A DNA stretch of 64,000 bases. Origin: Arenicellales bacterium. GTDB taxonomy: Bacteria > Pseudomonadota > Gammaproteobacteria > Arenicellales > Poriferihabitantaceae. The translations under genes were made by a program, and so were the position numbers. Numbering within the stretch: the first letter of the stretch is position 1; the number at the start of each line of letters is the position of its first letter. The stretch is from assembly GCA_965231905.1 (NCBI GenBank), contig CBDDOO010000001.1, positions 324,900 through 388,899 of the forward strand, written 5' to 3'. This document shows, one piece after another, positions 3,237-15,237 of this stretch. The notes beneath the pieces were generated by a model. It had not been told where the DNA came from. It saw nothing but the letters and a program-made list of their open reading frames with translations, and did not search any database.

Positions 3237-5111
3237 ATGTCAGAAAATCACAATCAAGGTTCCCAAGAAGGCGGAGGAGATCAGGACATGGCAATAGTGA
3301 CTCAAGAGGATTTTGTGTCTGCGGACCTCGAAGCGCCTATTCGTGGTAGCAACAAGGTTGATTGCTGGAACTTGGCGGCCCTGTACGAAACAGCAGCCAG
3401 AGAACACAAACAAGCTGGCAACGAAACCGCCGCCCGCGTCTATTGTCTTATCGCTGATGTCTCCCACATGCACTTCAACCCCGAAGACCGGGCGGAACCC
3501 TATGGTCCTAATTTTGTTTTGGGCGGAAGGCGAAGTATGATCCCCTGCGACTTGCGAGGAGGTCAATCGGACGTATTCGCAGCTATTGCGTCTAATATTG
3601 ATAATCCAGGACTCAGGGCACGGCTTTCCGATGTGGCTTGGCACAACAATCGTGGGCTTTTTGCCATGGCACAATTGGCGATCAACGCCTATTGCGATAC
3701 TGTGCAAGCGGTTCTCGACGGCACAGCCGAATTTTTTTCCGACGAGCGAACCGCCAGTAGCCGAAGTGGTACTGAGATGCTGCACCGCGCTTGTCAAATC
3801 GCCCATGCAACAGGCTGGAAGAAATCTGAAAAAATACGCCTCAAGTCATTAATCACCACCGTTGTCCAGGATGCATTCAATCGAAAAGATCACCGTGGAT
3901 TCCTGAATACAGCCGAACTCAGCCTGCAACTCCGCATCGGCGAATCGGACGCTATAGCTCGAAACGCCGAGACGCTGATTACAACCAACAGCCCGGATGC
4001 TTTTATTTCCCGTGAACTATGGCAACTCGCCGCTCTTGCCTACCGACAGTCGGGAAACGATACTGAGCTCAACCGCTGCCTTATATCCGCAGCGGAATGT
4101 CTCGTTGCACTGGCAGATGCTGAAGGCGGGCGCGGAATGGTCGCAGCAGGTCACTTGAGTGATGCCATCAAAGAACTTAGGCGAATACCAGATACTCAGA
4201 AAAGGCGACAACAACTTGAGCGCAAGCTCCGCGACGCGCAAGCCTCAATACATGACGAAATGGGCGTGATATCGGCGCCGGTTGACCGGACTGATCTTGT
4301 CAAAGAAACCCGTAAAAGTGTGAGTGGCTTGAGTCTGGCACAGGCACTAGCGGTTTTTGCTGATCTCGCTTCGCCCCCGGCCCCGGCAACGTTACGAGAC
4401 GAAGCGAGGAAGCAGTACGAGAAAAGTCCTTTCTTGAGTCTTATTCCGAAGTCGATAGTCGATGACGAAGGCAAGGTAGTGTCCAGGTCTCCCGCTCTCA
4501 CTGGCAACGAAGCAGAAGACCAATCAGCAATCCACCATAGCATTGCCAAAGATGAAGGCTTTCGCAGGCATATTGTCGTTCGCGGGCAGATTGAACCGGC
4601 AAGGCAGTTGATCCATTTCGAACACACGCTCGGACAGCGTGATTTCCTCCCTCTCGTGACTATGAGCCCGTTCGTTCCTGAAGATCGTGTGGTTCTTTTC
4701 AGTTTGGCGTTTATGCGATTTTTCGGCGGAGATTTTATGTCCGCACTTCACATTCTCGTTCCGCAGTTGGAGAATTCATTGCGTCATATCCTGAAACAGA
4801 CTGGCAAGGAACCCTCCTCAATCCAGAGTGACATGACGCAGGAAAACCGGAGTTTGTCGGTACTGCTCACGAAGGATCGAGAGTCACTCGAAAAAGTATT
4901 CGGCTCCGCTATTATCTATGAGATTGAGAACCTGTTTGATTTTCGAGGCGGCCCCGCACTCAGGCATCAACTGGCGCACGGGTTGGTCTCAGGAGAGGCT
5001 TGCTACGGGACAGATGCGATTTATGCGTGCTGGTTCATTTTTCGGCTGTGTTGTCTGCCTTTATTTAGTCATTGGGAACAACTGACCAAGTGGATGGACG
5101 GAAACTATTAG
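3237..5111 (+). CDS. alpha-helical protein with C-terminal HEPN-like (Rx4H) / DUF4209-like domain
   Basis: 624-aa ORF with GGAG 9 nt upstream of the ATG. C-terminus LFDFRGGPALRHQLAHGLV contains R576-x4-H581 (nt 4962-4979), as in HEPN/Abi_2-type RNxxAH motifs. A second LENSLRHILK helix lies upstream. Confidence 0.75.
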   Translation: MSENHNQGSQEGGGDQDMAIVTQEDFVSADLEAPIRGSNKVDCWNLAALYETAAREHKQAGNETAARVYCLIADVSHMHFNPEDRAEPYGPNFVLGGRRSMIPCDLRGGQSDVFAAIASNIDNPGLRARLSDVAWHNNRGLFAMAQLAINAYCDTVQAVLDGTAEFFSDERTASSRSGTEMLHRACQIAHATGWKKSEKIRLKSLITTVVQDAFNRKDHRGFLNTAELSLQLRIGESDAIARNAETLITTNSPDAFISRELWQLAALAYRQSGNDTELNRCLISAAECLVALADAEGGRGMVAAGHLSDAIKELRRIPDTQKRRQQLERKLRDAQASIHDEMGVISAPVDRTDLVKETRKSVSGLSLAQALAVFADLASPPAPATLRDEARKQYEKSPFLSLIPKSIVDDEGKVVSRSPALTGNEAEDQSAIHHSIAKDEGFRRHIVVRGQIEPARQLIHFEHTLGQRDFLPLVTMSPFVPEDRVVLFSLAFMRFFGGDFMSALHILVPQLENSLRHILKQTGKEPSSIQSDMTQENRSLSVLLTKDRESLEKVFGSAIIYEIENLFDFRGGPALRHQLAHGLVSGEACYGTDAIYACWFIFRLCCLPLFSHWEQLTKWMDGNY

Positions 5112-5218
5112 ACTCGCCCAGTTTCTCGACATGAGAAAACACTCGGACTCAGTGAGGCGGATACCCTCCCTGCCCACCACAAAGCGAAATCGTGTATCAT
5201 CCCTGCCGGAGTCCAGAT

Positions 5219-7366
5219 ATGTATACGATAAATGACATCAATCCGGTCGAAATAAAACAGCCATTTCGACCACGGGCGAGGGTGCTACAACTTCTCGGTG
5301 ACGAATTGATAGGCAGCGCCCGATTGGCGGTCTTTGAACTGGTCAAAAATGCGTATGATGCGGACGCAAATGAAGCTGTCGTTCGCCTTGATCTTGCCTC
5401 GACACAAGAGCCAATGATCATTATTAACGACGATGGCGAGGGCATGACTCTCGATGTACTCCGATCAGTCTGGCTGGCGCCGGGGGACGATCATCGTCAG
5501 AAACAACGCCTATCGGGCCGGAGAACCGCCAAGCATCAGCGTCTTCCACTTGGAGAGAAGGGGTTAGGCAGATTCGCTGTCCACAAACTCGGGAATCACA
5601 TCACCCTCGTGACGCGTGCTCAGAATGCTGACGAATGTGTGGTGGAAATTGACTGGAACGAGCTGATCGACAAACCCTATCTGGATGAAGCGCCCGTGAC
5701 GATACGGGTTCGTTACCCAGAAGTGTTTACCGGAGAACAGACGGGAACCCGTATCGAAATCCGTCAATTACGAATAGCCGACTGGTCGCGTGGTGAAGTA
5801 CGGCGCTTGCACAACCAGATCACCTCCATTTGCTCTCCGTTCGAGGAACCAGGGGATTTCGATGCCAGGTTGCTCGTCCCCGGACGCGAGGACTGGATTG
5901 ATGACCTGCCAGATATTTCCGAAATTCTTGATCGAGCGATCTGGAAGTTTTCCTTTCGAGTTTCGGATGGCGACTTCAACTGGACTTACGAATTCCGCCA
6001 GATTCCCGGTTTCAATCTCGACGGCAGAACCGTCAATAAGTCTGGCGACCGGCTGAGGCTTCCGTCACGCTCGGGTGACGACCGGATGGAAAAGAAAGTT
6101 GTGGCCGATAAAGAGATATTTGAAGGTATCGGTCCTGTCACCGGAGAATTTTATGTTTACGACCGGGGTCAGGAAGTGCGTCGGAGAATGTCCCAGATAC
6201 GACTGCTGGAGTCTTACCTTGATGAAACGGGAGGAGTACGAGTCTACCGGGATGGCATTAGAGTGTATAACTATGGTGAGTCTGGAGACGATTGGCTTGG
6301 CCTTGATCTGCGTCGTGTGAATGTGCCGACACGCCGTATCAGCCGCAATATCATTTTAGGAGCGATACATCTGTCCCTGCGAGAATCCACTGGTCTTGTC
6401 GAGAAAACGAATCGGGAAGGTTTCGTAGAAAACGCGCCCTGCCTCCAGTTGCGCCGAATCGTCCTCGGCGCCCTTGCTGCCCTTGAGGCGGAACGGCAAT
6501 TTGATAAAGAGCGTATCAGACAATTGACCGAAAAACCGGACGATCCAGTGAGCGCTAAAATCGAAAAACCGATACAGGCGCTGCGCCGCGAGCTTGAACG
6601 ACAGGGGGTGGAAGAAAAGTTCGAGAACTTTGTTGTAAAGATCGAACAGGACTACCAGAGCATGCAAGCGACACTGCTCACAGCCGGCATGTCCGGTTTG
6701 AATCTGGCAGTAGTATTTCATGAGGTAGAACGGGGTGTGCGGGCACTCCACCAAGTCATTTCCGAAGGTGCGGACATGGAGAGCGCTATTCTCCAAGCGC
6801 GTGATCTCATGCGCCTTCTCGACGGGTTCGCCACATTGCTCCGGCGAGACAGCAAACAGCAACACAATGGGAGGAAATTGCTGGATGCCGCTCGAAAGTT
6901 CAATATATTGCGCTTCCGACATCATCGCATCCAACTCGTATGTCCGTCTCTGAAAAGCGCTGACGAACTGTTCTACTCCCGGTTTGCATTCGGTTTGGTT
7001 GTGGGAGCATTGAACAATCTTGTGGATAACGCTCTATACTGGCTCCGGGTAAAATGGCCGGATATTCCAGAGCCAAACGATTCTACCGAACGAAAGCTTT
7101 ACATCGGCGTATCGGACGATTTCGATGCTGGACCGGCCATCATCGTCGCGGACAACGGTACGGGTTTTCAGGGAGACGCGCCTGAAAACCTCGTGCGGCC
7201 ATTCTTCACTCGCAAGCCCGAAGGGATGGGGCTTGGTCTTTATTACGCAAATCTGGCGATGGAATTGAATGGAGGACAGCTTGCTTTTCCACAGCCGGGA
7301 GAGGTCGAACTTCCCGAAGAATTCGACGGCGCAGTCGTCGCCCTGATATTCAAGGAGGTGAAATGA
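5219..7366 (+). CDS. dual GHKL ATPase: N-terminal MORC/HATPase_c_3-like module plus C-terminal histidine-kinase-like DHp/CA module
   Basis: N-terminal motifs: ELVKNAYDADA (N box), INDDGEGM (G1), GEKGLGRFAVHKLG (G2). Centre: VVFHEVERG (His codon 6719-6721, H-box-like). C-terminal motifs: NLVDNALYW, VADNGTGF, GMGLGLYYA. ATG at 5219 follows GGAG; GTG at 5192 is an alternative start. Confidence 0.85.
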   Translation: MYTINDINPVEIKQPFRPRARVLQLLGDELIGSARLAVFELVKNAYDADANEAVVRLDLASTQEPMIIINDDGEGMTLDVLRSVWLAPGDDHRQKQRLSGRRTAKHQRLPLGEKGLGRFAVHKLGNHITLVTRAQNADECVVEIDWNELIDKPYLDEAPVTIRVRYPEVFTGEQTGTRIEIRQLRIADWSRGEVRRLHNQITSICSPFEEPGDFDARLLVPGREDWIDDLPDISEILDRAIWKFSFRVSDGDFNWTYEFRQIPGFNLDGRTVNKSGDRLRLPSRSGDDRMEKKVVADKEIFEGIGPVTGEFYVYDRGQEVRRRMSQIRLLESYLDETGGVRVYRDGIRVYNYGESGDDWLGLDLRRVNVPTRRISRNIILGAIHLSLRESTGLVEKTNREGFVENAPCLQLRRIVLGALAALEAERQFDKERIRQLTEKPDDPVSAKIEKPIQALRRELERQGVEEKFENFVVKIEQDYQSMQATLLTAGMSGLNLAVVFHEVERGVRALHQVISEGADMESAILQARDLMRLLDGFATLLRRDSKQQHNGRKLLDAARKFNILRFRHHRIQLVCPSLKSADELFYSRFAFGLVVGALNNLVDNALYWLRVKWPDIPEPNDSTERKLYIGVSDDFDAGPAIIVADNGTGFQGDAPENLVRPFFTRKPEGMGLGLYYANLAMELNGGQLAFPQPGEVELPEEFDGAVVALIFKEVK

Positions 7367-8658
7367 GGCTGCCAGCACCGCGTATTATCGCGATTGACGA
7401 CGAACCGAAACACCTCAAAGGATTGGCGCAGGGACTCAACCGATATGGCACGGCCTGTCTGCCCATTCACTTCACAGGTGAAGCCACTATTCCTTCATGT
7501 TCTCATGTACGTGTAATCTTCGCCGACCTTCACCTCAGTGGCGGCCTTAAAGACCATGCACAAGACTTCAGCATAATCGGCGGCCTGATTGAAGATATCC
7601 AACCATCCGGTCCTTATTTCATCGTCCTCTGGACCATGTATCCAGAGCAAGCGTCTGCATTGTATGCTTTCCTTGTGGATCGTCTCCAGAGTGTGGCTAA
7701 ACCGTTCACGGTGCAAGCACTCAACAAGAACGATCATCTTGACACACAGGGTGATGTAAAAAACCCTGAGGCGCTTGTCGAAGCTATAGGACGGGTCGTT
7801 GTAGAACAGCCACAGATCGGGGCGCTATTCAATTGGGAGGAGCGGGTACTGGGCGCTACCGCGGATACAGTATCATCCATTACCAAGATGGCTGATTCGG
7901 CTGCAAAAGACGCAAGCCCCGTTAAAGAAATCGACAGGTTGCTCAAGAATATTGCCATTGCCGCTGTCGGTAAAGATCATGTCGAAGAAGATCGGTTTCA
8001 AGCTGTCAATGAAGCGCTTCTACCCATCCTCGCTGACCGCATTGCATCCATGCGTTCACGGGAGATTGACCGTGAATTATGGAAAGCCGCGTTTGGCGGA
8101 TCAAAGACCAGTTCCAAGTTGAGATCTGATGAAGCTGCCAAGCTTAACCGTCTGCTTCACATTGCACATCCGACAGACATAAGTAGCTGGATGGAACGTG
8201 GCTCTGTCATTACTTTGCCAAAGAGAGCCTCAGGCGACAAGTTCAAGCCATGGTTCGGTCTTGAACAAGAGATGGCGGCCAACAAATCCTTCGGTTGTCA
8301 GGATTTCGACTCAAACGATGCTCGATTCCGTTGGGTACTCGTACAATCGCAAGCGGCTTGTGACTACGCTCAAATACGGCCGGGGCCATTGACTTTCTAT
8401 CTCGGGCTGTGCTTGCCCGAACCAAGAGCTCGTAAAGGGAGCCTCCCTTCCGCCCTTTGGGCCAGCCCATGTTTCTACTTTGATGACGAGCCCTTCCTGC
8501 TGCATGTGAACGCAGGCTTTCAAATGCCGTTGCCACGAACGTCGCGAGGAATAGAAAAGCCTCTTTTTCGTCTGCGCGAACAGCTTCTCAACGATATGAT
8601 TTATCGACTCCATAGCCACGGCGCCCGGCCTGGGGTTATTTCATTTCGCAAATCTTAG
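7363..8658 (+). CDS. response-regulator receiver (REC) domain protein with ~300-aa C-terminal domain of unknown function
   Basis: REC landmarks: RIIAIDDEP, VIFADLHLSG (Asp 7525-7527), FIVLWT, VAKPF (Lys 7698-7700). ATGA overlap with the upstream gene, and AAGGAGG RBS at 7352-7358. Confidence 0.8.
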   Translation: MRLPAPRIIAIDDEPKHLKGLAQGLNRYGTACLPIHFTGEATIPSCSHVRVIFADLHLSGGLKDHAQDFSIIGGLIEDIQPSGPYFIVLWTMYPEQASALYAFLVDRLQSVAKPFTVQALNKNDHLDTQGDVKNPEALVEAIGRVVVEQPQIGALFNWEERVLGATADTVSSITKMADSAAKDASPVKEIDRLLKNIAIAAVGKDHVEEDRFQAVNEALLPILADRIASMRSREIDRELWKAAFGGSKTSSKLRSDEAAKLNRLLHIAHPTDISSWMERGSVITLPKRASGDKFKPWFGLEQEMAANKSFGCQDFDSNDARFRWVLVQSQAACDYAQIRPGPLTFYLGLCLPEPRARKGSLPSALWASPCFYFDDEPFLLHVNAGFQMPLPRTSRGIEKPLFRLREQLLNDMIYRLHSHGARPGVISFRKS

Positions 8659-8669
8659 GCAAGTGATTC

Positions 8670-9623
8670 TTAAGGAGAATCAATCAGGGATTTCACCACA
8701 GCCGTCATCACCGGCGGGCAGACCCCGTTACCGAGTAGCCGGACGCGGTCGCGTCGAGTACCGATCAGCAACTTGAAACTCTCATCGAAACCCATGGCTC
8801 GCTTGAGCTCGGGAACTTGGAGCATCCGCATCCTTGATTCCCTCCCATCATGCTGGACAAGAGCGAAACGATCCACAGTTGTAATGGTGCGTAAAGGCCG
8901 ATCAAGGGGTTGCCAGCCGCCACTTCCATCATTCCCATAGTACACCAGAAGAAAACTGGCTTCCTCTCCGAGTGCCTGAAAGCCGCGTTGCGCCCGTTCA
9001 AGCGTCGCAGTGGCCCGACGCTCATCGAACAAGGCAGATGTTTTCCAGACACCTACTGAATCCAGTATTGACTTTACCGTTTTACGCTGACAGGGGCGCT
9101 TGTGGATAACCGGGTTCGGATTACGCGCGCGGTCGCCGACGAGAAAGAGACGGCGCCGACGTTGCGGCACACCGAAATCGGCTGAATCCAACACGTGTTC
9201 ATGCAACCGATAACCGAGATTGCCAAGTTCATGCTTGAGTTCTCCATAGCGCGACCATGGTCGCATGTGGATCACATTTTCCAACACCAGCCACCGGGGA
9301 CGCAGTGCTTGAGCATAGCTGACAACCAACATGGCAGTGGCACGGCTGGCTTCGTCACGCGGCGCCCCGCCCTTGGCACAGGTATGGTTAGTGCATTCGG
9401 GAGAAGCAAGCAGAAGATCAATCTCGCCGATTTCCGTTTTCAAGGAACCGAGGGGAACGCTTTCCAAACGTTCGGCGATGACCCGCGCCTCTGGAAAATT
9501 GGTAGAAAACGTCTTGGCTGCGATGGCGCACATATCAACACCGACAACGATTTCGGCTCCGGCATCTCGCGCTCCGGCGCTACCGCCGCCTGCACCGCAG
9601 AACATGTCAAATGCCCGTATCAT
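8670..9623 (-). CDS. DNA (cytosine-5)-methyltransferase
   Basis: AFDMFCGAGGGS (motif I), ASPECTNHTCAKGG (motif IV variant with PEC), LENV (motif VI), PQRRRRLFLVG (motif VIII). Lies 37 nt downstream of hsdS on the same strand. Confidence 0.9.
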   Translation of the reverse strand: MIRAFDMFCGAGGGSAGARDAGAEIVVGVDMCAIAAKTFSTNFPEARVIAERLESVPLGSLKTEIGEIDLLLASPECTNHTCAKGGAPRDEASRATAMLVVSYAQALRPRWLVLENVIHMRPWSRYGELKHELGNLGYRLHEHVLDSADFGVPQRRRRLFLVGDRARNPNPVIHKRPCQRKTVKSILDSVGVWKTSALFDERRATATLERAQRGFQALGEEASFLLVYYGNDGSGGWQPLDRPLRTITTVDRFALVQHDGRESRMRMLQVPELKRAMGFDESFKLLIGTRRDRVRLLGNGVCPPVMTAVVKSLIDSP

Positions 9624-9660
9624 CTTGTGGTGATGATTGTTTTGCTGTTTATGATGTCAG

Positions 9661-10818
9661 TCATGCGTCTGCTTCCAGAAGGCGTGACATCAGGGAAGCG
9701 GTCAACGACGCGGAGGTTTTATGACCGGAGTCAGCGAGTTTGGTTGTTGTCTGTGCAGATTGTATGATTTCTGCAAATCGCTTTTGTGCATCAAAAGTCG
9801 GTACTGGAACCGGCATCGACAAGAGTGCTTTCATGTCGGTTCTGGGCATCCGTGAGCCTGTTACCGAGGCCATAACATAGTCAACGGTTTCTTCTCGCCG
9901 GAGCAAGTTTGCAAGAAAGTCACGATTTACCCCGTCTCGAGGTAGCAATGGGATAAGCTCGGTCGAACACCTGCCAGGGAAATCGGGCGTGGCAACTTTA
10001 TTAAGGTATGGCCTGAGCTTTCCATAAAGAACATGGCGTTCGTCAAAAGAGAATGCCGCGCTCTTTCGGGCGCCGACACGAGAATCTGAATCGAAGTTAA
10101 AGGCTCCGATACCTGAGTCAACGTTTTCGACCCCGACGAAACGGAGTTGGGGTGCGATCGGATCGTTTGGTTTGATCCCGCGACGGTCCATATCGCAAAG
10201 GTCACCAAGCGTTTTTATCTCCCACCCCATCGGATTCTCGACCGGGTCTCCGAACATTTTGACGAACAGCGCCGGAATGAATTCCTGCAACCGTTCCTGT
10301 GCCTGTTTTTGCAGCCGTTCAATCTTCGCCGCCCGGTTCAGGATATTGACGATGCGGCGTTGCTCGTCGAGTGGTGGGAGAGGAATACAGACCTGCTTAA
10401 GAGTGGACTTTGGGAGTTCTCTAAACGTCGTACCTCCGGCGAGTTGAATCAGGCGTTCACGCTGGTCGCGAAGCCAAAATGCGAGATACTCCGGCACAAT
10501 GCGTTCGCTACAAATGAGGTTGGCGAAACCCTGGTTGGTCGCTATGGGCTGAGTCGCGATTGCCGTGTAGCCAATGGTGGCTCTACTCGTCATCAATACG
10601 GTTCCAGCAGGCACTAAACGGGCACTGCTTTCACGCAACGCAACTTCAGTGATTGATTCCTTTGTTTGATCGAGAAAGAGAGTATCAAGCACTGTCACAT
10701 CCGTCGGTGTGGCCCACGGTATGGTGCCATTGAAATAAGCAGCAATACTACGCCGGGGAGTTCCCCCGCCAACGATGGTACAAACTTCTGCGAGAGGCAC
10801 TCGTACGCACGCAGTCAT
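9661..10818 (-). CDS. hsdS: type I restriction-modification specificity subunit
   Basis: Two-TRD layout with conserved helical spacers (PLPPLDEQRRIVNILN ... VPVPTFDAQKRFAEII). ATGA overlap with hsdM. Confidence 0.9.
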   Translation of the reverse strand: MTACVRVPLAEVCTIVGGGTPRRSIAAYFNGTIPWATPTDVTVLDTLFLDQTKESITEVALRESSARLVPAGTVLMTSRATIGYTAIATQPIATNQGFANLICSERIVPEYLAFWLRDQRERLIQLAGGTTFRELPKSTLKQVCIPLPPLDEQRRIVNILNRAAKIERLQKQAQERLQEFIPALFVKMFGDPVENPMGWEIKTLGDLCDMDRRGIKPNDPIAPQLRFVGVENVDSGIGAFNFDSDSRVGARKSAAFSFDERHVLYGKLRPYLNKVATPDFPGRCSTELIPLLPRDGVNRDFLANLLRREETVDYVMASVTGSRMPRTDMKALLSMPVPVPTFDAQKRFAEIIQSAQTTTKLADSGHKTSASLTASLMSRLLEADA

Positions 10819-12446
10819 TCCGCCACCACCCCTCGCACCGCCCCCGCCAACTCATCAATCTCTCCCAATATCTCCGTCTCAATTTCCCTCAATTCCTCCA
10901 GAATCTCCAACGGGTCGCGATGCTTCACTTTAGCCCGGCTTTGTGGCCGGTGCCGGTTGGCGCTGAGATTGAAGTCCACAGCGCGAATTTCATCAGCCTC
11001 GGCGAACCACCACTTCTCCGTCCAGTTGTCCTTCAGATCCCGGTCGCGCCACGCCGCCCACCGCTCCTCCCGGTCCTGGAACGCATCAATCAGACCGGGC
11101 AGGTCATCCTCGTCAATCGGCGTATCATGGTTGGCGTCCAGCTTGAATCCGTCCTGGTCGGCATGGAGAAACATCACCCGTTCTGTTGTCCCACCCTTGC
11201 GAAATACCAGCACGGAAGTCTTGACCCCGGAATAGGGATTGAACACGCCACCGGGCAACGACAGTACGGCCTCCACCGTATTGTTCTCGATCAGTTTGCG
11301 CCGCAATTCCTGGTGCGCTCCAGTAGACCCGAACAATACACCCTCCGGCACGACCACACCGCAACGTCCTCCTTCCCGCAAATGGTTGACCATGTATTGC
11401 AGGAACAGAAGTTCCGTCTGCGCTGTGCGTCCGACCTTCACATCCTCGACAATGCGATCCTTGTCCAGGCGCCCGGAAAAGGGCGGGTTGGCGAGGATGA
11501 CATCAAATCCCTGCACTGGCAGACCCAGTTCCGCCTTTGCGGCCCGGTCCAGGGAACGGGTCAGTGCATCGCGGCGCAAGATGCGTACCCGGTCCAGACC
11601 GCGCAGGGTCAGATTCATCGTGGCGAGGCGCACCATCTGCGGGTCTACATCGTTGCCGAAGAACGTGGCTTCCTGCAACTGCCGCACCGCGTTCCGGCTC
11701 AACGTGTCGCCGAGTCCGCGTACAACTGTCTTGCCCTCGGCTTCCACCTCTTCCATTCCGTCAGGCGACGAGTTCGCCAGCCGGATATGATCGTAGGCGC
11801 CGACCAGAAAGCCAGACGTGCCTGCCGCCGGGTCGTAAACAGTCTCGCCGATGCGGGGGTCAACCAGCCGAACCAGGGCGCGGATAATGTGGCGTGGGGT
11901 TCGGAACTGACCCAACTCCCCCGCCTGACGGATCTGGCGTAATACATGCTCGAACAGATCGCCCTTGGTATCCGCGTCCACCTGGTCCAGATGCAGGTCG
12001 TTCAGTTGGCTGACGATCTGGGTGAGTACGGTCGGCTCATCAATCACCAGCCGGGCGCCGTCCATGAAATCGGTAACGCCGTCTGCCGCGACTTCGGCAT
12101 GGAACGCAAAGACCTCCTCGCGAACCCAGTGGACCAGTCGCTCGCCGTTCAGCGCATGCGCCCAGGACGACCATCTCAACAATTCGCGTGATACGGACTC
12201 GGCGCCTGACTCTGGAGCATTGCGCGGGTCGCGCAAGTCCCATTCTCCTTCGAAGACGCTGGCATAGGGAGCGGCTCCCGGACGCCGGGCAGCCCGCACA
12301 CGTACCGCGTCCGCCGCCTCGTACAGGTAGAAGTAGATCAGGAAGCTGAGTTGCTCGGCGTTCTGGGCCGGATTCGGGTAACCGCCGCCGAACAGGTAAT
12401 TGCGGATACGGTCGATGCCGCGCCGAAGTTCCGGGGTCATGGGCAT
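10815..12446 (-). CDS. hsdM: type I restriction-modification N6-adenine DNA methyltransferase subunit
   Basis: FRTPRHI, DPAAGTSGFL (SAM motif), ILANPPFSG (NPPF catalytic motif). Start moved to ATG 12446, 4 nt after the hsdR stop, rather than the track start 12530, which would overlap hsdR by 80 nt. Confidence 0.9.
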   Translation of the reverse strand: MPMTPELRRGIDRIRNYLFGGGYPNPAQNAEQLSFLIYFYLYEAADAVRVRAARRPGAAPYASVFEGEWDLRDPRNAPESGAESVSRELLRWSSWAHALNGERLVHWVREEVFAFHAEVAADGVTDFMDGARLVIDEPTVLTQIVSQLNDLHLDQVDADTKGDLFEHVLRQIRQAGELGQFRTPRHIIRALVRLVDPRIGETVYDPAAGTSGFLVGAYDHIRLANSSPDGMEEVEAEGKTVVRGLGDTLSRNAVRQLQEATFFGNDVDPQMVRLATMNLTLRGLDRVRILRRDALTRSLDRAAKAELGLPVQGFDVILANPPFSGRLDKDRIVEDVKVGRTAQTELLFLQYMVNHLREGGRCGVVVPEGVLFGSTGAHQELRRKLIENNTVEAVLSLPGGVFNPYSGVKTSVLVFRKGGTTERVMFLHADQDGFKLDANHDTPIDEDDLPGLIDAFQDREERWAAWRDRDLKDNWTEKWWFAEADEIRAVDFNLSANRHRPQSRAKVKHRDPLEILEELREIETEILGEIDELAGAVRGVVAE

Positions 12447-12450
12447 ACCG

Positions 12451-14601
12451 TCAACGCTCCCCGATGTGAGAGTCCCTGGATTCGCCTGTTGTCGGACGCG
12501 GTCCGAACACCACGGCATTGAATCCGGCAATCAGCCTGTCGAGGAATTTCTCGCCTCCGAACACCCGCCGGGCCTGATCATATCCGCCCAGGGCGGTGAA
12601 CGGGTGTTCATCCAGGTTGTAATCTCCGAAGGTTTCCGCTTTCATGGCGTTCGCCTTGACCTGACTCCCGATCAGTCCCGCCCAGCGAGCCTGTTCGGCG
12701 GTGAGTTCCTGCTCACTGCGCCATTGCTCAACCCGCAAGCCGATTCCGGCTGCTCGCGCATCGTGTTCCGGCGTGCGCACAATCCGGCCGTTCTCATCGA
12801 GCGTCAGCCACTCGCGGGTTGAGGGGTCAATGTGGTCGTCCACATCCAGCGTCAATAGCTTGCCGGATTGGTATGGCCCCTGTCGTCCGTCCCGTTTGTT
12901 GGCATCCAGGACTCCGCCTTCCATGCCTTCATCATCGTCTCCGTGGAAATCGGTCACACCGGCGAAATCGAACAGGGTGAATCCTGTCTTCCCGATATGA
13001 TCCGCCCTGCGAGTGCCGCGTCCGCGCATCTGTCGGTAGAGGATGGCGCTGCGGGTGAACCGGGCCATCACCAGATTGACCACCTCGGGACAGTCGAAGC
13101 CGGTATCGAGCATATTTACACTGACCAGAATCCGGGGAAATTCTTCTTCCTTGAAGCGCTTGATGATGGCGCCTGCATCGGGGGCCGGGCCGCCGCCTGC
13201 GTCACTCACCACGAAATCCGCGTATCGCGTCGTCGGGTGCGGTTTCAGGTCGGCGAAATGCTCATCGAACATCTCCGCCAGCGTTTGCGCATGGCGTTTC
13301 GTCACCGCGAATACGATGGTTTTGCCCATGTCCGGGATATGCCGGATACCGCTCTTGCCCATGAACCCTTTTTCGAAGGTGTCGCGGAACTCGCGGACGA
13401 TGGCGCGGTTGCGTTCGGGTATCGTGAATCTGCGTTCCAGGGCGCGAGGGTCTACGCTGATGCTGTCCATAGTCACGAACAATTTCTCGAACTCGGACCG
13501 GGTGGTCACATCCATCGCGCTCCAGTCCAGTTCATCGCGCCGAACTGAAAATCCGTCTACATCGGCTGTCTTTACCGTCATCGCCTTGTAGATGCGATAG
13601 GGAACCAGGTGGCCCGCCTGAATGGCTTCGGGTAATGTGTAGCGGAAAGTCGGCTTTTCAAGGCCGAAGAACCGCAGAGTGTCCCGCACGAACAGGCCGT
13701 CTTCCGGGTCGGAAGGCGCGTCCCCATCCATTACGGTGCAAGGGGTCGCCGTCAGTCCCAGTTGGAACCCATCAAAATGCCGTAATACGCCACTCCATTT
13801 GCCATAGATTGAGCGGTGGCATTCATCGGTAATCACCAGATCGAAATAACCCGGTGAAAGGTCGCGATATTCCGCGATCATGGTCTGAAGGGTCGCAATC
13901 GTGACCCGCTTGGCCCGGTCGAATCCCCGGCCGGGGCGCAATACGTGACAGGGATAATCCCGCAGGTGGTCGGTAAATGCGTCTTCGGCTTGACCGGCCA
14001 GCGCAATTCGGTCAACAAGGAACAGGACACGGGTGACCATACCCGCCTCGAACAAGCGTTTAATGAAAGCGGCCGCTGTGCGGGTCTTGCCGGTTCCCGT
14101 CGCCATCTCGACCAGCAGTTTGCGCCGCCCCCGCAATACTTCGGTAGATAGCTCTTCGATACAGGCGATCTGGTAATCCCGGTCCACGATGCTCCGGTCA
14201 ATGGCGACACTGGAAAGGTCGCGGCGAATCCGGCGCGCGGCAATCCGCCTTTCCAGATCATCCTGTGAATAGAAACCCGCGATTATCCGGGCATGCGCGT
14301 CTGTTTCGCGATCCAGGAAGCGTACTTCCTCGCCGTTCGACAGGAATACGAACGGCACATCCAGTTGTCCGGCGTAGTGGCGCCCCTGGTCCTGAGCCGT
14401 GACCGGATCAATGCTGGCGCGCTTGGCTTCGAGTATCGCCATCGGGCGGCCCTGACGGTCACAGAGCGCATAGTCCGCCTGCGTACCATCGGGAAGGGCG
14501 TGCTCGAACAGGACGCTCGACCCATCGGTGATATTCCAGCCTGAATCTTTCAGCAATGCGTCAATCTTGACGCGGGAAAACGCTTCAGTGGTTGAGGTCA
14601 C
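12451..14601 (-). CDS. hsdR: type I restriction enzyme R subunit (PD-(D/E)xK nuclease + SF2 helicase)
   Basis: N-terminal ADYALCDRQGRPMAILEAKR (D...EAK nuclease motif), MATGTGKT (Walker A), ITDECHRS (DEAH-type motif II). GTG start. At 716 aa it is short for HsdR. Confidence 0.85.
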   Translation of the reverse strand: MTSTTEAFSRVKIDALLKDSGWNITDGSSVLFEHALPDGTQADYALCDRQGRPMAILEAKRASIDPVTAQDQGRHYAGQLDVPFVFLSNGEEVRFLDRETDAHARIIAGFYSQDDLERRIAARRIRRDLSSVAIDRSIVDRDYQIACIEELSTEVLRGRRKLLVEMATGTGKTRTAAAFIKRLFEAGMVTRVLFLVDRIALAGQAEDAFTDHLRDYPCHVLRPGRGFDRAKRVTIATLQTMIAEYRDLSPGYFDLVITDECHRSIYGKWSGVLRHFDGFQLGLTATPCTVMDGDAPSDPEDGLFVRDTLRFFGLEKPTFRYTLPEAIQAGHLVPYRIYKAMTVKTADVDGFSVRRDELDWSAMDVTTRSEFEKLFVTMDSISVDPRALERRFTIPERNRAIVREFRDTFEKGFMGKSGIRHIPDMGKTIVFAVTKRHAQTLAEMFDEHFADLKPHPTTRYADFVVSDAGGGPAPDAGAIIKRFKEEEFPRILVSVNMLDTGFDCPEVVNLVMARFTRSAILYRQMRGRGTRRADHIGKTGFTLFDFAGVTDFHGDDDEGMEGGVLDANKRDGRQGPYQSGKLLTLDVDDHIDPSTREWLTLDENGRIVRTPEHDARAAGIGLRVEQWRSEQELTAEQARWAGLIGSQVKANAMKAETFGDYNLDEHPFTALGGYDQARRVFGGEKFLDRLIAGFNAVVFGPRPTTGESRDSHIGER

Positions 14602-14616
14602 AAGTTGAACCGGGAA

Positions 14617-15237
14617 TCAAGGCATCGGTACTTCCGTATCGACCGGGACGCGGTAGCCTTTTTGTACGGCCGGGCGCGCGGCAATTTCGGTGTACCAGCG
14701 TTTCACGTTCAGGAAGTCGTTCATATCGACCTGTTGCCACTCGAATCGGGAGGCCCAGGGCCACAACGCGATATCGGCGATTGAGTAGTCACCGGCGACA
14801 TATTCATTTTCTTCCAGATGGTCGTCGAGTACGGCATAGAGGCGCTGGGCTTCGACCTTGTATCTTTTCTCGGCGTATTCACTGGTTCCGGGCTTGAAGT
14901 GCAGGAAGTGGTGAGCCTGCCCCAGCATCGGGCCGAAGCCGCCCATCTGGAACATCAGCCATTCCAGAATTTGCCAGCGCTTGTCTTGCGGCATCAGCAT
15001 TCTGGTTTTATCGGCCAGATAAATCAGGATCGCGCCGGATTCCATCATGCTCAAGTCGTTTTCCTCATCGACGATAGCCGGAATCTTGTTGTTCGGGCTG
15101 ATCTTCAGGAAATCTTCATCGAATTGGTCGTTCTTGCCGATGTCGATCGGGTGGACCCGGTAGGGCAGTCCGGTTTCTTCGAGCATGATGGACGCTTTGC
15201 GTCCGTTCGGGGTGCTCCAGGTGTATAGATTAATCAT
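14617..15237 (-). CDS. yfcG: Nu-class glutathione S-transferase / disulfide-bond oxidoreductase, YfcG-like
   Basis: Resembles E. coli YfcG from memory (LY..TPNG.K..LEE..L.Y....D...G.QF...FL.ISPNNKIPAIVD). Confidence 0.85.
   Translation of the reverse strand: MINLYTWSTPNGRKASIMLEETGLPYRVHPIDIGKNDQFDEDFLKISPNNKIPAIVDEENDLSMMESGAILIYLADKTRMLMPQDKRWQILEWLMFQMGGFGPMLGQAHHFLHFKPGTSEYAEKRYKVEAQRLYAVLDDHLEENEYVAGDYSIADIALWPWASRFEWQQVDMNDFLNVKRWYTEIAARPAVQKGYRVPVDTEVPMP

Follow-up and report, generated by a model that had tools for sequence, protein, structure and literature searches.

The window analysed here, a stretch of 64,000 nucleotides from an Arenicellales bacterium (assembly GCA_965231905.1, contig CBDDOO010000001.1, positions 324,900 to 388,899), carries at 7363..8658 on the forward strand a gene for a response regulator-like (RR-like) protein of 431 amino acids (aa). 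Its product has a receiver-like domain, then a helical domain and then a predicted MazF/CcdB-like barrel. We tentatively propose, giving the reading somewhat less than an even chance, that this protein is the phospho-activated output of a methylation-linked defensive two-component system that consists of a histidine kinase (HK), the RR-like protein, a C5 cytosine DNA methylase and usually Vsr. The kinase is the constant partner of the RR-like gene and the C5 methylase a usual one; the RR-like protein is therefore a plausible output of a methylation-linked immune relay. The gene is a member of a published kind that is known from computer analysis alone.

To judge from its relatives, the RR-like open reading frame (ORF) is a real gene and far from a chance ORF, because 539 homologues were found in the 90%-clustered database and a profile search of the 50%-clustered library returned 1,587 representatives at E ≤ 1e-3 (392 of them at E ≤ 1e-30), nearly all full length. 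The family spans many phyla. Almost all members measure about 430 aa and are matched end to end, and they are carried by plasmids of Rhizobium, Agrobacterium and Burkholderia and by chromosomes of Acinetobacter baumannii. Their database name is 'hypothetical protein', with one UniRef 'Response regulatory domain-containing protein' as the sole exception. A ribosome-binding site, AAGGAGG, lies 6-7 nt 5' of the ATG, which overlaps the TGA of the upstream kinase gene as ATGA (7363-7366). The stop codon is TAG, and the end of a convergent methylase gene follows 11 bp further on. The original prediction, made from the letters of this DNA, had described an ORF with a REC domain and a tail of about 300 aa. 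Both are borne out by the ORF at 7363-8658, and the two tail peptides that it quoted are present, FRWVLVQSQAACDYAQIRPGP as residues 322-342 and PCFYFDDEPFLLHVNAGFQMPL as residues 369-390. The interval to which it assigned the tail, 7750-8658, corresponds to residues 130-431.

On sequence and modelling grounds, residues 1-129 (7363..7749, + strand) are a receiver-like domain, although Pfam Response_reg (PF00072) gave no match to the protein. We make this assignment because of a weak response-regulator match in the PDB sequence search (3rqi, E 0.04, residues 8-138), Foldseek matches to receivers and near-invariant residues at D12/D13, D55, T/S91 and K122; the REC domain originally predicted thus stands by its residues, by Foldseek and by the weak 3rqi match, and it goes undetected by the Pfam model. 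Residue counts were taken over 236 full-length homologues with identity down to 28%. In the acidic pair (D12/D13, codons 7396-7401), D12 is kept in 233 sequences and position 13 is D in 214 and N in 20. The predicted phospho-acceptor D55 (7525-7527) is kept in 235, and both T or S at position 91 (T91 codon, 7633-7635) and K122 (7726-7728) occur in all 236; these codons, too, lie on the forward strand. The full-length AlphaFold2 (AF2) model agrees in its secondary structure, with strand-helix repeats, the conserved receiver residues at strand ends and a loop in place of helix alpha-2, and its Foldseek matches are receiver domains (DrrB, HupR, CheY4 and others) with a probability of about 1.0. 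This full-length model was built from a shallow alignment of 38 sequences, all at least 56% identical, and had a predicted local distance difference test (pLDDT) score of 72.8. Its helical region was poor, and Foldseek returned only receiver domains and spurious G-protein-coupled receptor helices.

The partner gene (5192..7366, + strand) encodes a 724-aa soluble paraMORC-type GHKL ATPase fused to a histidine-kinase core; its true start is probably the ATG at 5219. The N-terminal GHKL (Bergerat) ATP-binding domain (5324..5668, +; Pfam HATPase_c_3, residues 45-159, E 2.4e-16) carries the motifs E49xxxN53xxD56, D81-G-x-G84 and G121xxGxG126, which are at least 90% conserved among 36 orthologues. 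The same degree of conservation applies to H510 and E511 in the H box FHEVERGV, where H510 (6719..6721, +) is the predicted phospho-histidine. It applies equally to the boxes of the C-terminal catalytic (CA) domain (7007..7294, +; Pfam HATPase_c, residues 606-701, E 2.6e-13), namely N613, G1 D654xGxG658, F671-F672 and G2 G678xGxG682. The conservation profile is highest in a central block (6224..6391, +; GGVRVYRDGIRVYNYGE.GDDWLGLDLRRVN). By analogy this block is likely to be the S5/transducer part of the paraMORC module, because paraMORCs have a GHKL+S5 architecture (PMC2292703). The C-terminal part matches the histidine kinases FixL, ZraS and LvrB in the PDB sequence search, and the LvrB match, at residues 444-694 counted from M10, spans DHp and CA. 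The N-terminus matches the BbrUII/HgiDII model NF050001 over profile positions 8-170 of 659 (E 1.8e-22), scoring 79.7 bits against a cutoff of 550 for full-length membership. It also matches two PADLOC type II restriction endonuclease (REase) models and, weakly, MutL models; no nuclease motif or family was recognised in the HK-like protein. Together, the HK-like and RR-like proteins form what looks from their sequences like an intact His-Asp pair.

One lineage carries an extended kinase. In locus L002 (6627-10001; metagenome-assembled genome (MAG) OZ241883.1 of Ca. Oxydemutator) the kinase ORF is 1,124 aa long with in-frame N-terminal TIR and TPR, and the RR-like gene, a C5 methylase and Vsr come after this TIR-TPR-GHKL-kinase fusion. 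Among longer members of the RR-like family, a kinase CA domain is the sole fusion partner seen. The 378-aa database protein P0171 has HATPase_c at residues 6-101 and the RR-like profile at 122-368; it is a natural fusion of kinase CA and RR or else two genes called as one over the overlapping stop and start codons.

The pairing was followed across 35 independent genome loci (tblastn) plus three look-ups. In 35/35 loci the RR-like gene comes directly after the kinase, its start falling where the kinase match ends. A C5 methylase homologue is found within about 3 kb of the pair in ~31/35 loci and Vsr in ~29/35, and the RR-like gene has the GHKL histidine kinase, this methylase and Vsr as its conserved partners. 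The genes upstream of the kinase in the looked-up loci are unrelated housekeeping genes, so the module begins with the kinase. The module of L003 consists of HK, RR and methylase alone, with housekeeping genes on either side. Plasmids of Rhizobium gallicum and Burkholderia glumae, with 31-32% RR identity, encode an ATP-binding protein, a hypothetical protein and then Dcm and Vsr in either order; on the Rhizobium plasmid, a type II endonuclease and an HNH gene stand next to Dcm-Vsr. A relay is suggested because the kinase is always upstream, with stop/start overlap, and because H510 and the receiver residues are conserved.

Vsr is a common companion of C5 methylases, so its presence in these loci need not involve the pair. 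This counts against a very improbable alternative, in which the HK/RR pair is an accessory of very-short-patch repair that helps Vsr with T:G mismatches from 5-methylcytosine deamination and is not immune. The strong linkage to Dcm and Vsr speaks for such a role, as do the MutL/MORC-like N-terminus of the kinase, with its weak MutL model matches, and the functional interaction of MutL and Vsr that was noted for paraMORCs (PMC2292703). However, the window retains HK, RR and methylase without Vsr, and the toxin-like barrel, the His-Asp relay, the defence island, the horizontal spread and the TIR-TPR fusion would be hard to explain by repair.

The output region, residues 130-431, had no match in Pfam, NCBIfam, PADLOC, PHROGs or PDB sequences by single-sequence and profile search. 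Library scans matched it to no helix-turn-helix (HTH), winged-helix, PNP or nuclease family, and no DNA-binding fold was among its Foldseek matches (PDB, BFVD). The original prediction had described just such a tail, without HTH, PNP or nuclease signature, and had named a common DNA-binding output as the result that would speak against it; that result was not obtained, as the region is no DNA-binding domain of a common kind, and no such family or fold was matched. Three further candidates for the output were dropped. For a PD-(D/E)xK nuclease there is neither a conserved D...(D/E)xK pattern nor a fold match. A Cys protease of the caspase-like 'QACxG' or papain-like Cys-His type would agree with the position of C333 at a helix N-terminus, but H266 belongs to the helical domain, and the searches matched no fold of this sort. 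An SRA/PUA-type 5-methylcytosine reader likewise had no fold match.

These negative results bear on a distinctly improbable alternative, that the RR-like protein is an ordinary regulator with an unusual nucleic-acid-binding output, which would time methylase or restriction-modification (R-M) expression as C-proteins do. Response regulators are mostly transcription factors, which favours it. It also comes near the suggestion of Bellieny-Rabelo, Pretorius and Moleleki (2021; PMC8011034), who speculate on signalling cascades controlling R-M and whose first noticed homologue was transcriptionally induced in planta. Yet the searches matched no DNA-binding family or fold, be it HTH, winged-helix or another, and the kinase has a DNA-engine-type GHKL module in place of an environmental sensor. 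Moreover, the module travels as a unit between phyla inside defence islands and, in one lineage, bears the TIR-TPR fusion on its kinase.

A deep-alignment AF2 model of residues 130-431 (132 sequences, identity down to 23%) supersedes the shallow-alignment model, with a pLDDT of 94.9 and a predicted template modelling (pTM) score of 0.87. It comprises an all-helical middle domain of six helices (residues 130-266; 7750..8160, +) and a beta-rich C-terminal domain (residues 275-421; 8185..8625, +). In the latter, strand 1 (ERGxV) is followed by two inserted helices, five or six strands and a long C-terminal helix. The ERG-x-V of strand 1 presumably recalls the (K/E)RG(D/E)(I/V) start of PemK-family toxins. 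When the model was compared with the PDB by Foldseek, MazF or CcdB filled 15 of the 18 top places (E 0.018-0.34, probability 0.77-0.99, template modelling (TM) score on target 0.50-0.61), including MazF-mt1, CcdB, E. coli MazF, S. aureus MazF and MazF-mt9. The other PDB matches were low-probability immunoglobulin noise. Against BFVD the best match was a PemK/MazF toxin (E 3.1e-3, probability 1.00, TM 0.61), with PemK-like proteins below it. The helical domain showed no similarity to MazF by hhalign, for which an alignment of 56 MazF sequences was made from 84 viral-contig loci. We favour an effector because the best matches of the barrel in two independent libraries are MazF, PemK and CcdB, and residues 275-421 are accordingly modelled as a predicted MazF/PemK/CcdB-type barrel, with support at the level of the fold and not as proof of homology. 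The Foldseek comparison of a predicted structure that had been suggested with the original prediction thus left the helical domain unmatched and found the barrel MazF/PemK/CcdB-like at marginal E-values. Of the relay model, the analysis established the order of the genes, the conservation, the intact state of catalytic and acceptor residues in the two proteins and this predicted fold.

The most conserved residues of the output region are C333 and D334 (codons 8359..8364, +; QAACDYAQ), kept in 236/236 and 235/236 homologues respectively. They lie after strand 2 in a short helix formed by residues 332-337 of the AF2 model, with C333 at its start. R403-L-R405 (8569..8577, +) occupies the last strand before the C-terminal helix and is followed by R422-P-G (8626-8634, +). 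R403 is kept in 235/236, R405 in 230/236 and R422 in 234/236 homologues, and Q337 is also among the most conserved residues of the barrel and tail. In the helical middle domain, W158, E159, G203, D225, W240, N262 and H266 are near-invariant, and the most variable segment of the protein is residues 267-322 (strand 1 and the inserted helices). An active or ligand site is suggested by the near-invariance of ten polar residues, E159, D225, N262, H266, C333, D334, Q337, R403, R405 and R422.

Their conservation also bears on an unlikely alternative, that the output region is a non-catalytic adaptor or regulatory module which, once the receiver is phosphorylated, would bind the kinase and gate its paraMORC GHKL+S5 engine or recruit a separately encoded nuclease (Vsr, HNH, type I/II enzymes), so that another protein would do the cutting. 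The invariant Cys-Asp pair, the three invariant Arg and the conserved E159, D225 and H266 more closely resemble an active or ligand site than a surface for docking. Residues 130-431 contain no known catalytic motif, as an adaptor would have it, and CcdB, which acts through protein binding and not catalysis, is among the fold matches. Nucleases are, in addition, frequent but variable neighbours, as seen on the Rhizobium plasmid, in the loci with type I R-M and in the 2021 survey, where HNH_2 and other nucleases were among the neighbours (PMC8011034). However, no particular nuclease family is conserved with the pair across the 35 loci, and some loci, such as L003, have only HK, RR and methylase among housekeeping genes.

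Several observations weigh against the RR-like protein as a toxin-like output of an immune relay. Its helical domain has no sequence or structural match, with none among the listed Foldseek hits (PDB, BFVD). The fold match of the barrel is marginal by E-value (0.003-0.02) and concerns a predicted structure. In hhalign, residues 262-431 matched the MazF alignment with a probability of 0.2%, and Pfam PemK_toxin and CcdB had no match in the 60 RR-like homologues scanned. R323, the sole Arg locally aligned with the catalytic Arg of MazF, varies among close homologues. No antitoxin-like gene lies beside the RR-like gene, whose flanks are the overlapping kinase and the convergent methylase. The conserved core of kinase, RR-like protein and methylase holds no recognisable nuclease, and classical 'restriction' is thus not established; the link to the methylase could be one of regulation or repair and not of self-marking. 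Finally, no experimental work on any member of the HK/RR-like family was found in the searchable literature.

For the phospho-activated output that we tentatively favour, we infer DNA or methylation sensing, phosphotransfer, a mechanism of activation and an effector chemistry as follows. The soluble kinase would engage DNA via its MutL/MORC-like GHKL+S5 module, while the cognate methylase would mark host DNA as self. Unmodified or foreign DNA, or a loss of methylation, would lead the kinase to autophosphorylate at H510, from where the phosphoryl group would move to D55 of the receiver-like domain. Phosphorylation of D55 would relieve or rearrange the helical middle domain and so switch on the C-terminal MazF/CcdB-like barrel. 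The barrel would be a toxic or nucleic-acid-directed effector, with MazF-like RNA cleavage as a first guess; alternatives would be CcdB-like poisoning of a protein, or a new activity dependent on Cys, Asp, Arg and His at the interface of helical domain and barrel. The relay model is also supported by three precedents, which are Detocs, the paraMORC-HEPN fusions and the in-silico linkage of 2021. Its boldest form, which we regard as rather unlikely, would be a new type of immunity in which R-M-style self marking is read by a MORC-like histidine kinase and relayed to a receiver-fused MazF/CcdB-like toxin with a new Cys/Asp/Arg site, acting by abortive infection in many phyla.

The setting of the pair in the window is a defence island, with an IS-type transposase, the PDC-S39 HEPN gene, the C5 methylase and type I R-M genes. 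The transposase ORF (1645-2994, +; 449 aa) has a weak DDE_Tnp_1 match, just below the Pfam cutoff (E 1.4e-4), and lies at the low-GC edge of the island; G+C is 0.51-0.55 over the first 10 kb of the window and 0.58-0.62 from 10 to 24 kb. The C5 cytosine DNA methyltransferase gene (8670..9623, - strand) matches Pfam DNA_methylase (3.2e-36), TIGR00675 dcm and a PADLOC DrmMII-type model (1.3e-92). Beyond it lie the type I genes hsdS, hsdM and hsdR (9661-14601), and a GST gene (14617-15237) forms the other edge of the island. A defensive role is favoured because of the linkage to C5 methylase and Vsr, the transposase, PDC-S39, the type I R-M genes, the restriction-enzyme-like N-terminus of the kinase and the added TIR and TPR in L002. 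The defence phosphorelay that the original prediction considered is supported as regards an intact-looking His-Asp pair in a defence-island setting; that the pair works as such a relay is plausible.

A HEPN-like gene, for whose product a co-purification test had been suggested with the original prediction, did not hold up as a partner of the RR-like gene. The gene in question (3237-5111, +) encodes a 624-aa DUF7380+DUF4209 protein (PADLOC candidate PDC-S39, E 4.8e-129; phrog_5183, E 8.5e-86) and stands 80 bp 5' of the kinase gene. Save for a fragment at the far end of L004, none of the 35 related loci has it, and it was rejected as a cassette member as it is not conserved with the HK/RR pair. 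R-M operons are said to contain DUF4209, a HEPN family (PMC3710099), and the DUF7380+DUF4209 gene is probably an independent single-gene defence candidate.

Type I R-M genes are present in the window and in six related loci. The block of kinase, RR-like gene, C5 methylase, optional Vsr, hsdS, hsdM and hsdR (window 5192-14601) recurs in L004-L008 and L014 with about 60-90% protein identity, in MAGs from several phyla, namely those of Arenicellales, Spirochaetia, Binatia, Longimicrobiales and Entotheonella. Its most variable component is hsdS, and the kinase (64-93%) is consistently more conserved than the RR-like protein (47-99%). From these sequences the block looks like a horizontally mobile composite defence island. 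The window itself is nearly identical to L004, an Arenicellales MAG (99% at protein level). It has no Vsr between C5 methylase and hsdS (8658-9661), unlike ~29/35 of the related loci; L004 does have Vsr, with about 840 bp between its RR-like gene and its methylase. Recombination within the island is suggested because the methylase is 90% identical to that of L004 and the RR-like protein 99%. A decayed module was seen in L038 (6247-9849, Paracoccaceae MAG), where the RR-like ORF ends near residue 93, the kinase ORF has lost part of its N-terminus and the break is adjoined, on the opposite strand, by a gene for a 328-aa reverse transcriptase (RVT_1, E 3.3e-16). A tblastn search of a phage genome collection gave MT838277.1 (3483-4787, 34% identity, 98% coverage) as the sole RR-like match, which is a 5.4-kb unannotated 'Bacteriophage sp.' contig from human faeces, too short to judge if it is viral. 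There was no match by blastn of a Pseudomonas copy against E. coli complete genomes, and none by megablast of the window module against plasmids.

The role of prokaryotic MORC and paraMORC ATPases in R-M neighbourhoods is a question that has stood since 2008. With its three genes and its predicted toxin-like output, the RR-like family is a tractable case for which the point mutants are clear (H510, D55, C333/D334, R403/R405). If true, the relay model would widen defensive two-component signalling past Detocs, tie epigenetic self-marking to a phosphorelay and give the MazF/CcdB fold a new regulated branch. The HK/RR family is also a large set of 'hypothetical proteins' missed by current defence-finder tools.

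The closest known relative is the pair that the 2021 study described in silico, starting from Pectobacterium and 628 strains (PMC8011034). There, the RR-like group OG_4 became the new Pfam family Response_reg_2 (PF19192) and the kinase group OG_5 became HEF_HK (PF19191); the two groups were adjacent in 91.6% of cases, the linkage was seen in 644 regions, and genes for C5 methylases, Vsr and type I/II R-M were enriched. The window family agrees with this pair in architecture, context and taxa. It shares an RR-like protein of about 430 aa with the DD/D/T/K receiver residues and no other known domain, an adjacent soluble protein with HATPase_c_3, H box (H-E) and HATPase_c, a strong linkage to C5 methylase and Vsr, and the genera Acinetobacter baumannii, Rhizobium, Agrobacterium and Pseudomonas. 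Membership by hidden Markov model is not among the grounds for this agreement: PF19192 and PF19191 had no match at E ≤ 1 to 10 in 72 proteins scanned, among them the window proteins and homologues from the paper's genera, in a scan with no positive control; the models are either very narrow or ineffective in the copy that was searched. Since family and operon were described in 2021, they are not new as an entity; for the candidate novel effector or regulatory domain of the original prediction, a predicted MazF/CcdB-like barrel fits an effector role. The region of about 130-430 was left unassigned in the paper, which proposes a possible regulatory link to R-M through signalling cascades and nothing further (PMC8011034), whereas here it is modelled as a helical domain and a MazF/CcdB-like barrel. 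As far as our searches show, no earlier report makes this assignment.

Other components of the module have likenesses elsewhere. The paraMORC GHKL+S5 ATPases were described in R-M operons with Dcm and Vsr by Iyer et al. in 2008 (PMC2292703), and Anantharaman et al. in 2013 reported paraMORC-HEPN (Ymh) fusions in R-M neighbourhoods as PrrC-like RNase modules (PMC3710099). These, like the PrrC/RloC RNases, resemble the module here in coupling a MORC-like GHKL ATPase near R-M genes to a putative RNase-type suicide effector; here, however, a His-Asp phosphotransfer would couple the ATPase to a separate protein, whose predicted effector fold is MazF-like and not HEPN. The BbrUII/HgiDII restriction enzymes have a homologous N-terminal GHKL domain and a C5 methylase partner, whereas beyond this domain the window protein has a kinase core in place of the enzyme's C-terminal part. 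From canonical response regulators the RR-like protein differs in having no PF00072 match and no HTH or winged-helix output. The MazF/PemK/Kid endoribonucleases and the gyrase poison CcdB, which are toxins of type II toxin-antitoxin systems, share the predicted arrangement of a barrel and then a long C-terminal helix (residues 275-421). In contrast to the MazF/PemK/CcdB toxins, the RR-like barrel has no sequence-profile similarity to them, carries two helices inserted between strands 1 and 2, has C333, D334, R403 and R405 as its conserved residues, and is fused to a receiver and a helical domain and not paired with an antitoxin gene.

The sole experimentally shown defensive two-component system found in the literature search is Detocs (Rousset et al. 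2023, bioRxiv 10.1101/2023.01.24.525353), an anti-phage system of the kinase DtcA, the buffer receiver DtcB and the receiver-effector DtcC. Its defence depends on the His of the kinase and the Asp of the receiver, the effector is toxic by itself, the effector domains are swappable, and the effector is a PNP in 80% of cases (10.1101/2023.01.24.525353). Like Detocs, the module described here places a histidine kinase beside a receiver fused to a non-DNA-binding output in defence islands, with a phospho-His (here H510) and a phospho-Asp (here D55) predicted by sequence conservation. PADLOC gave no Detocs match in the window module, which has no stand-alone receiver gene of the DtcB kind, and the effector here is not a PNP, transmembrane domain, REase or TOPRIM. 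Whereas the sensor of Detocs consists of TPRs, that of the present kinase would be a paraMORC GHKL+S5 module, with TIR and TPR added in the exception L002, and the neighbours here are a C5 methylase (~31/35) and Vsr (~29/35). A toxic effector as in Detocs would be in keeping with the predicted MazF/CcdB-like barrel.

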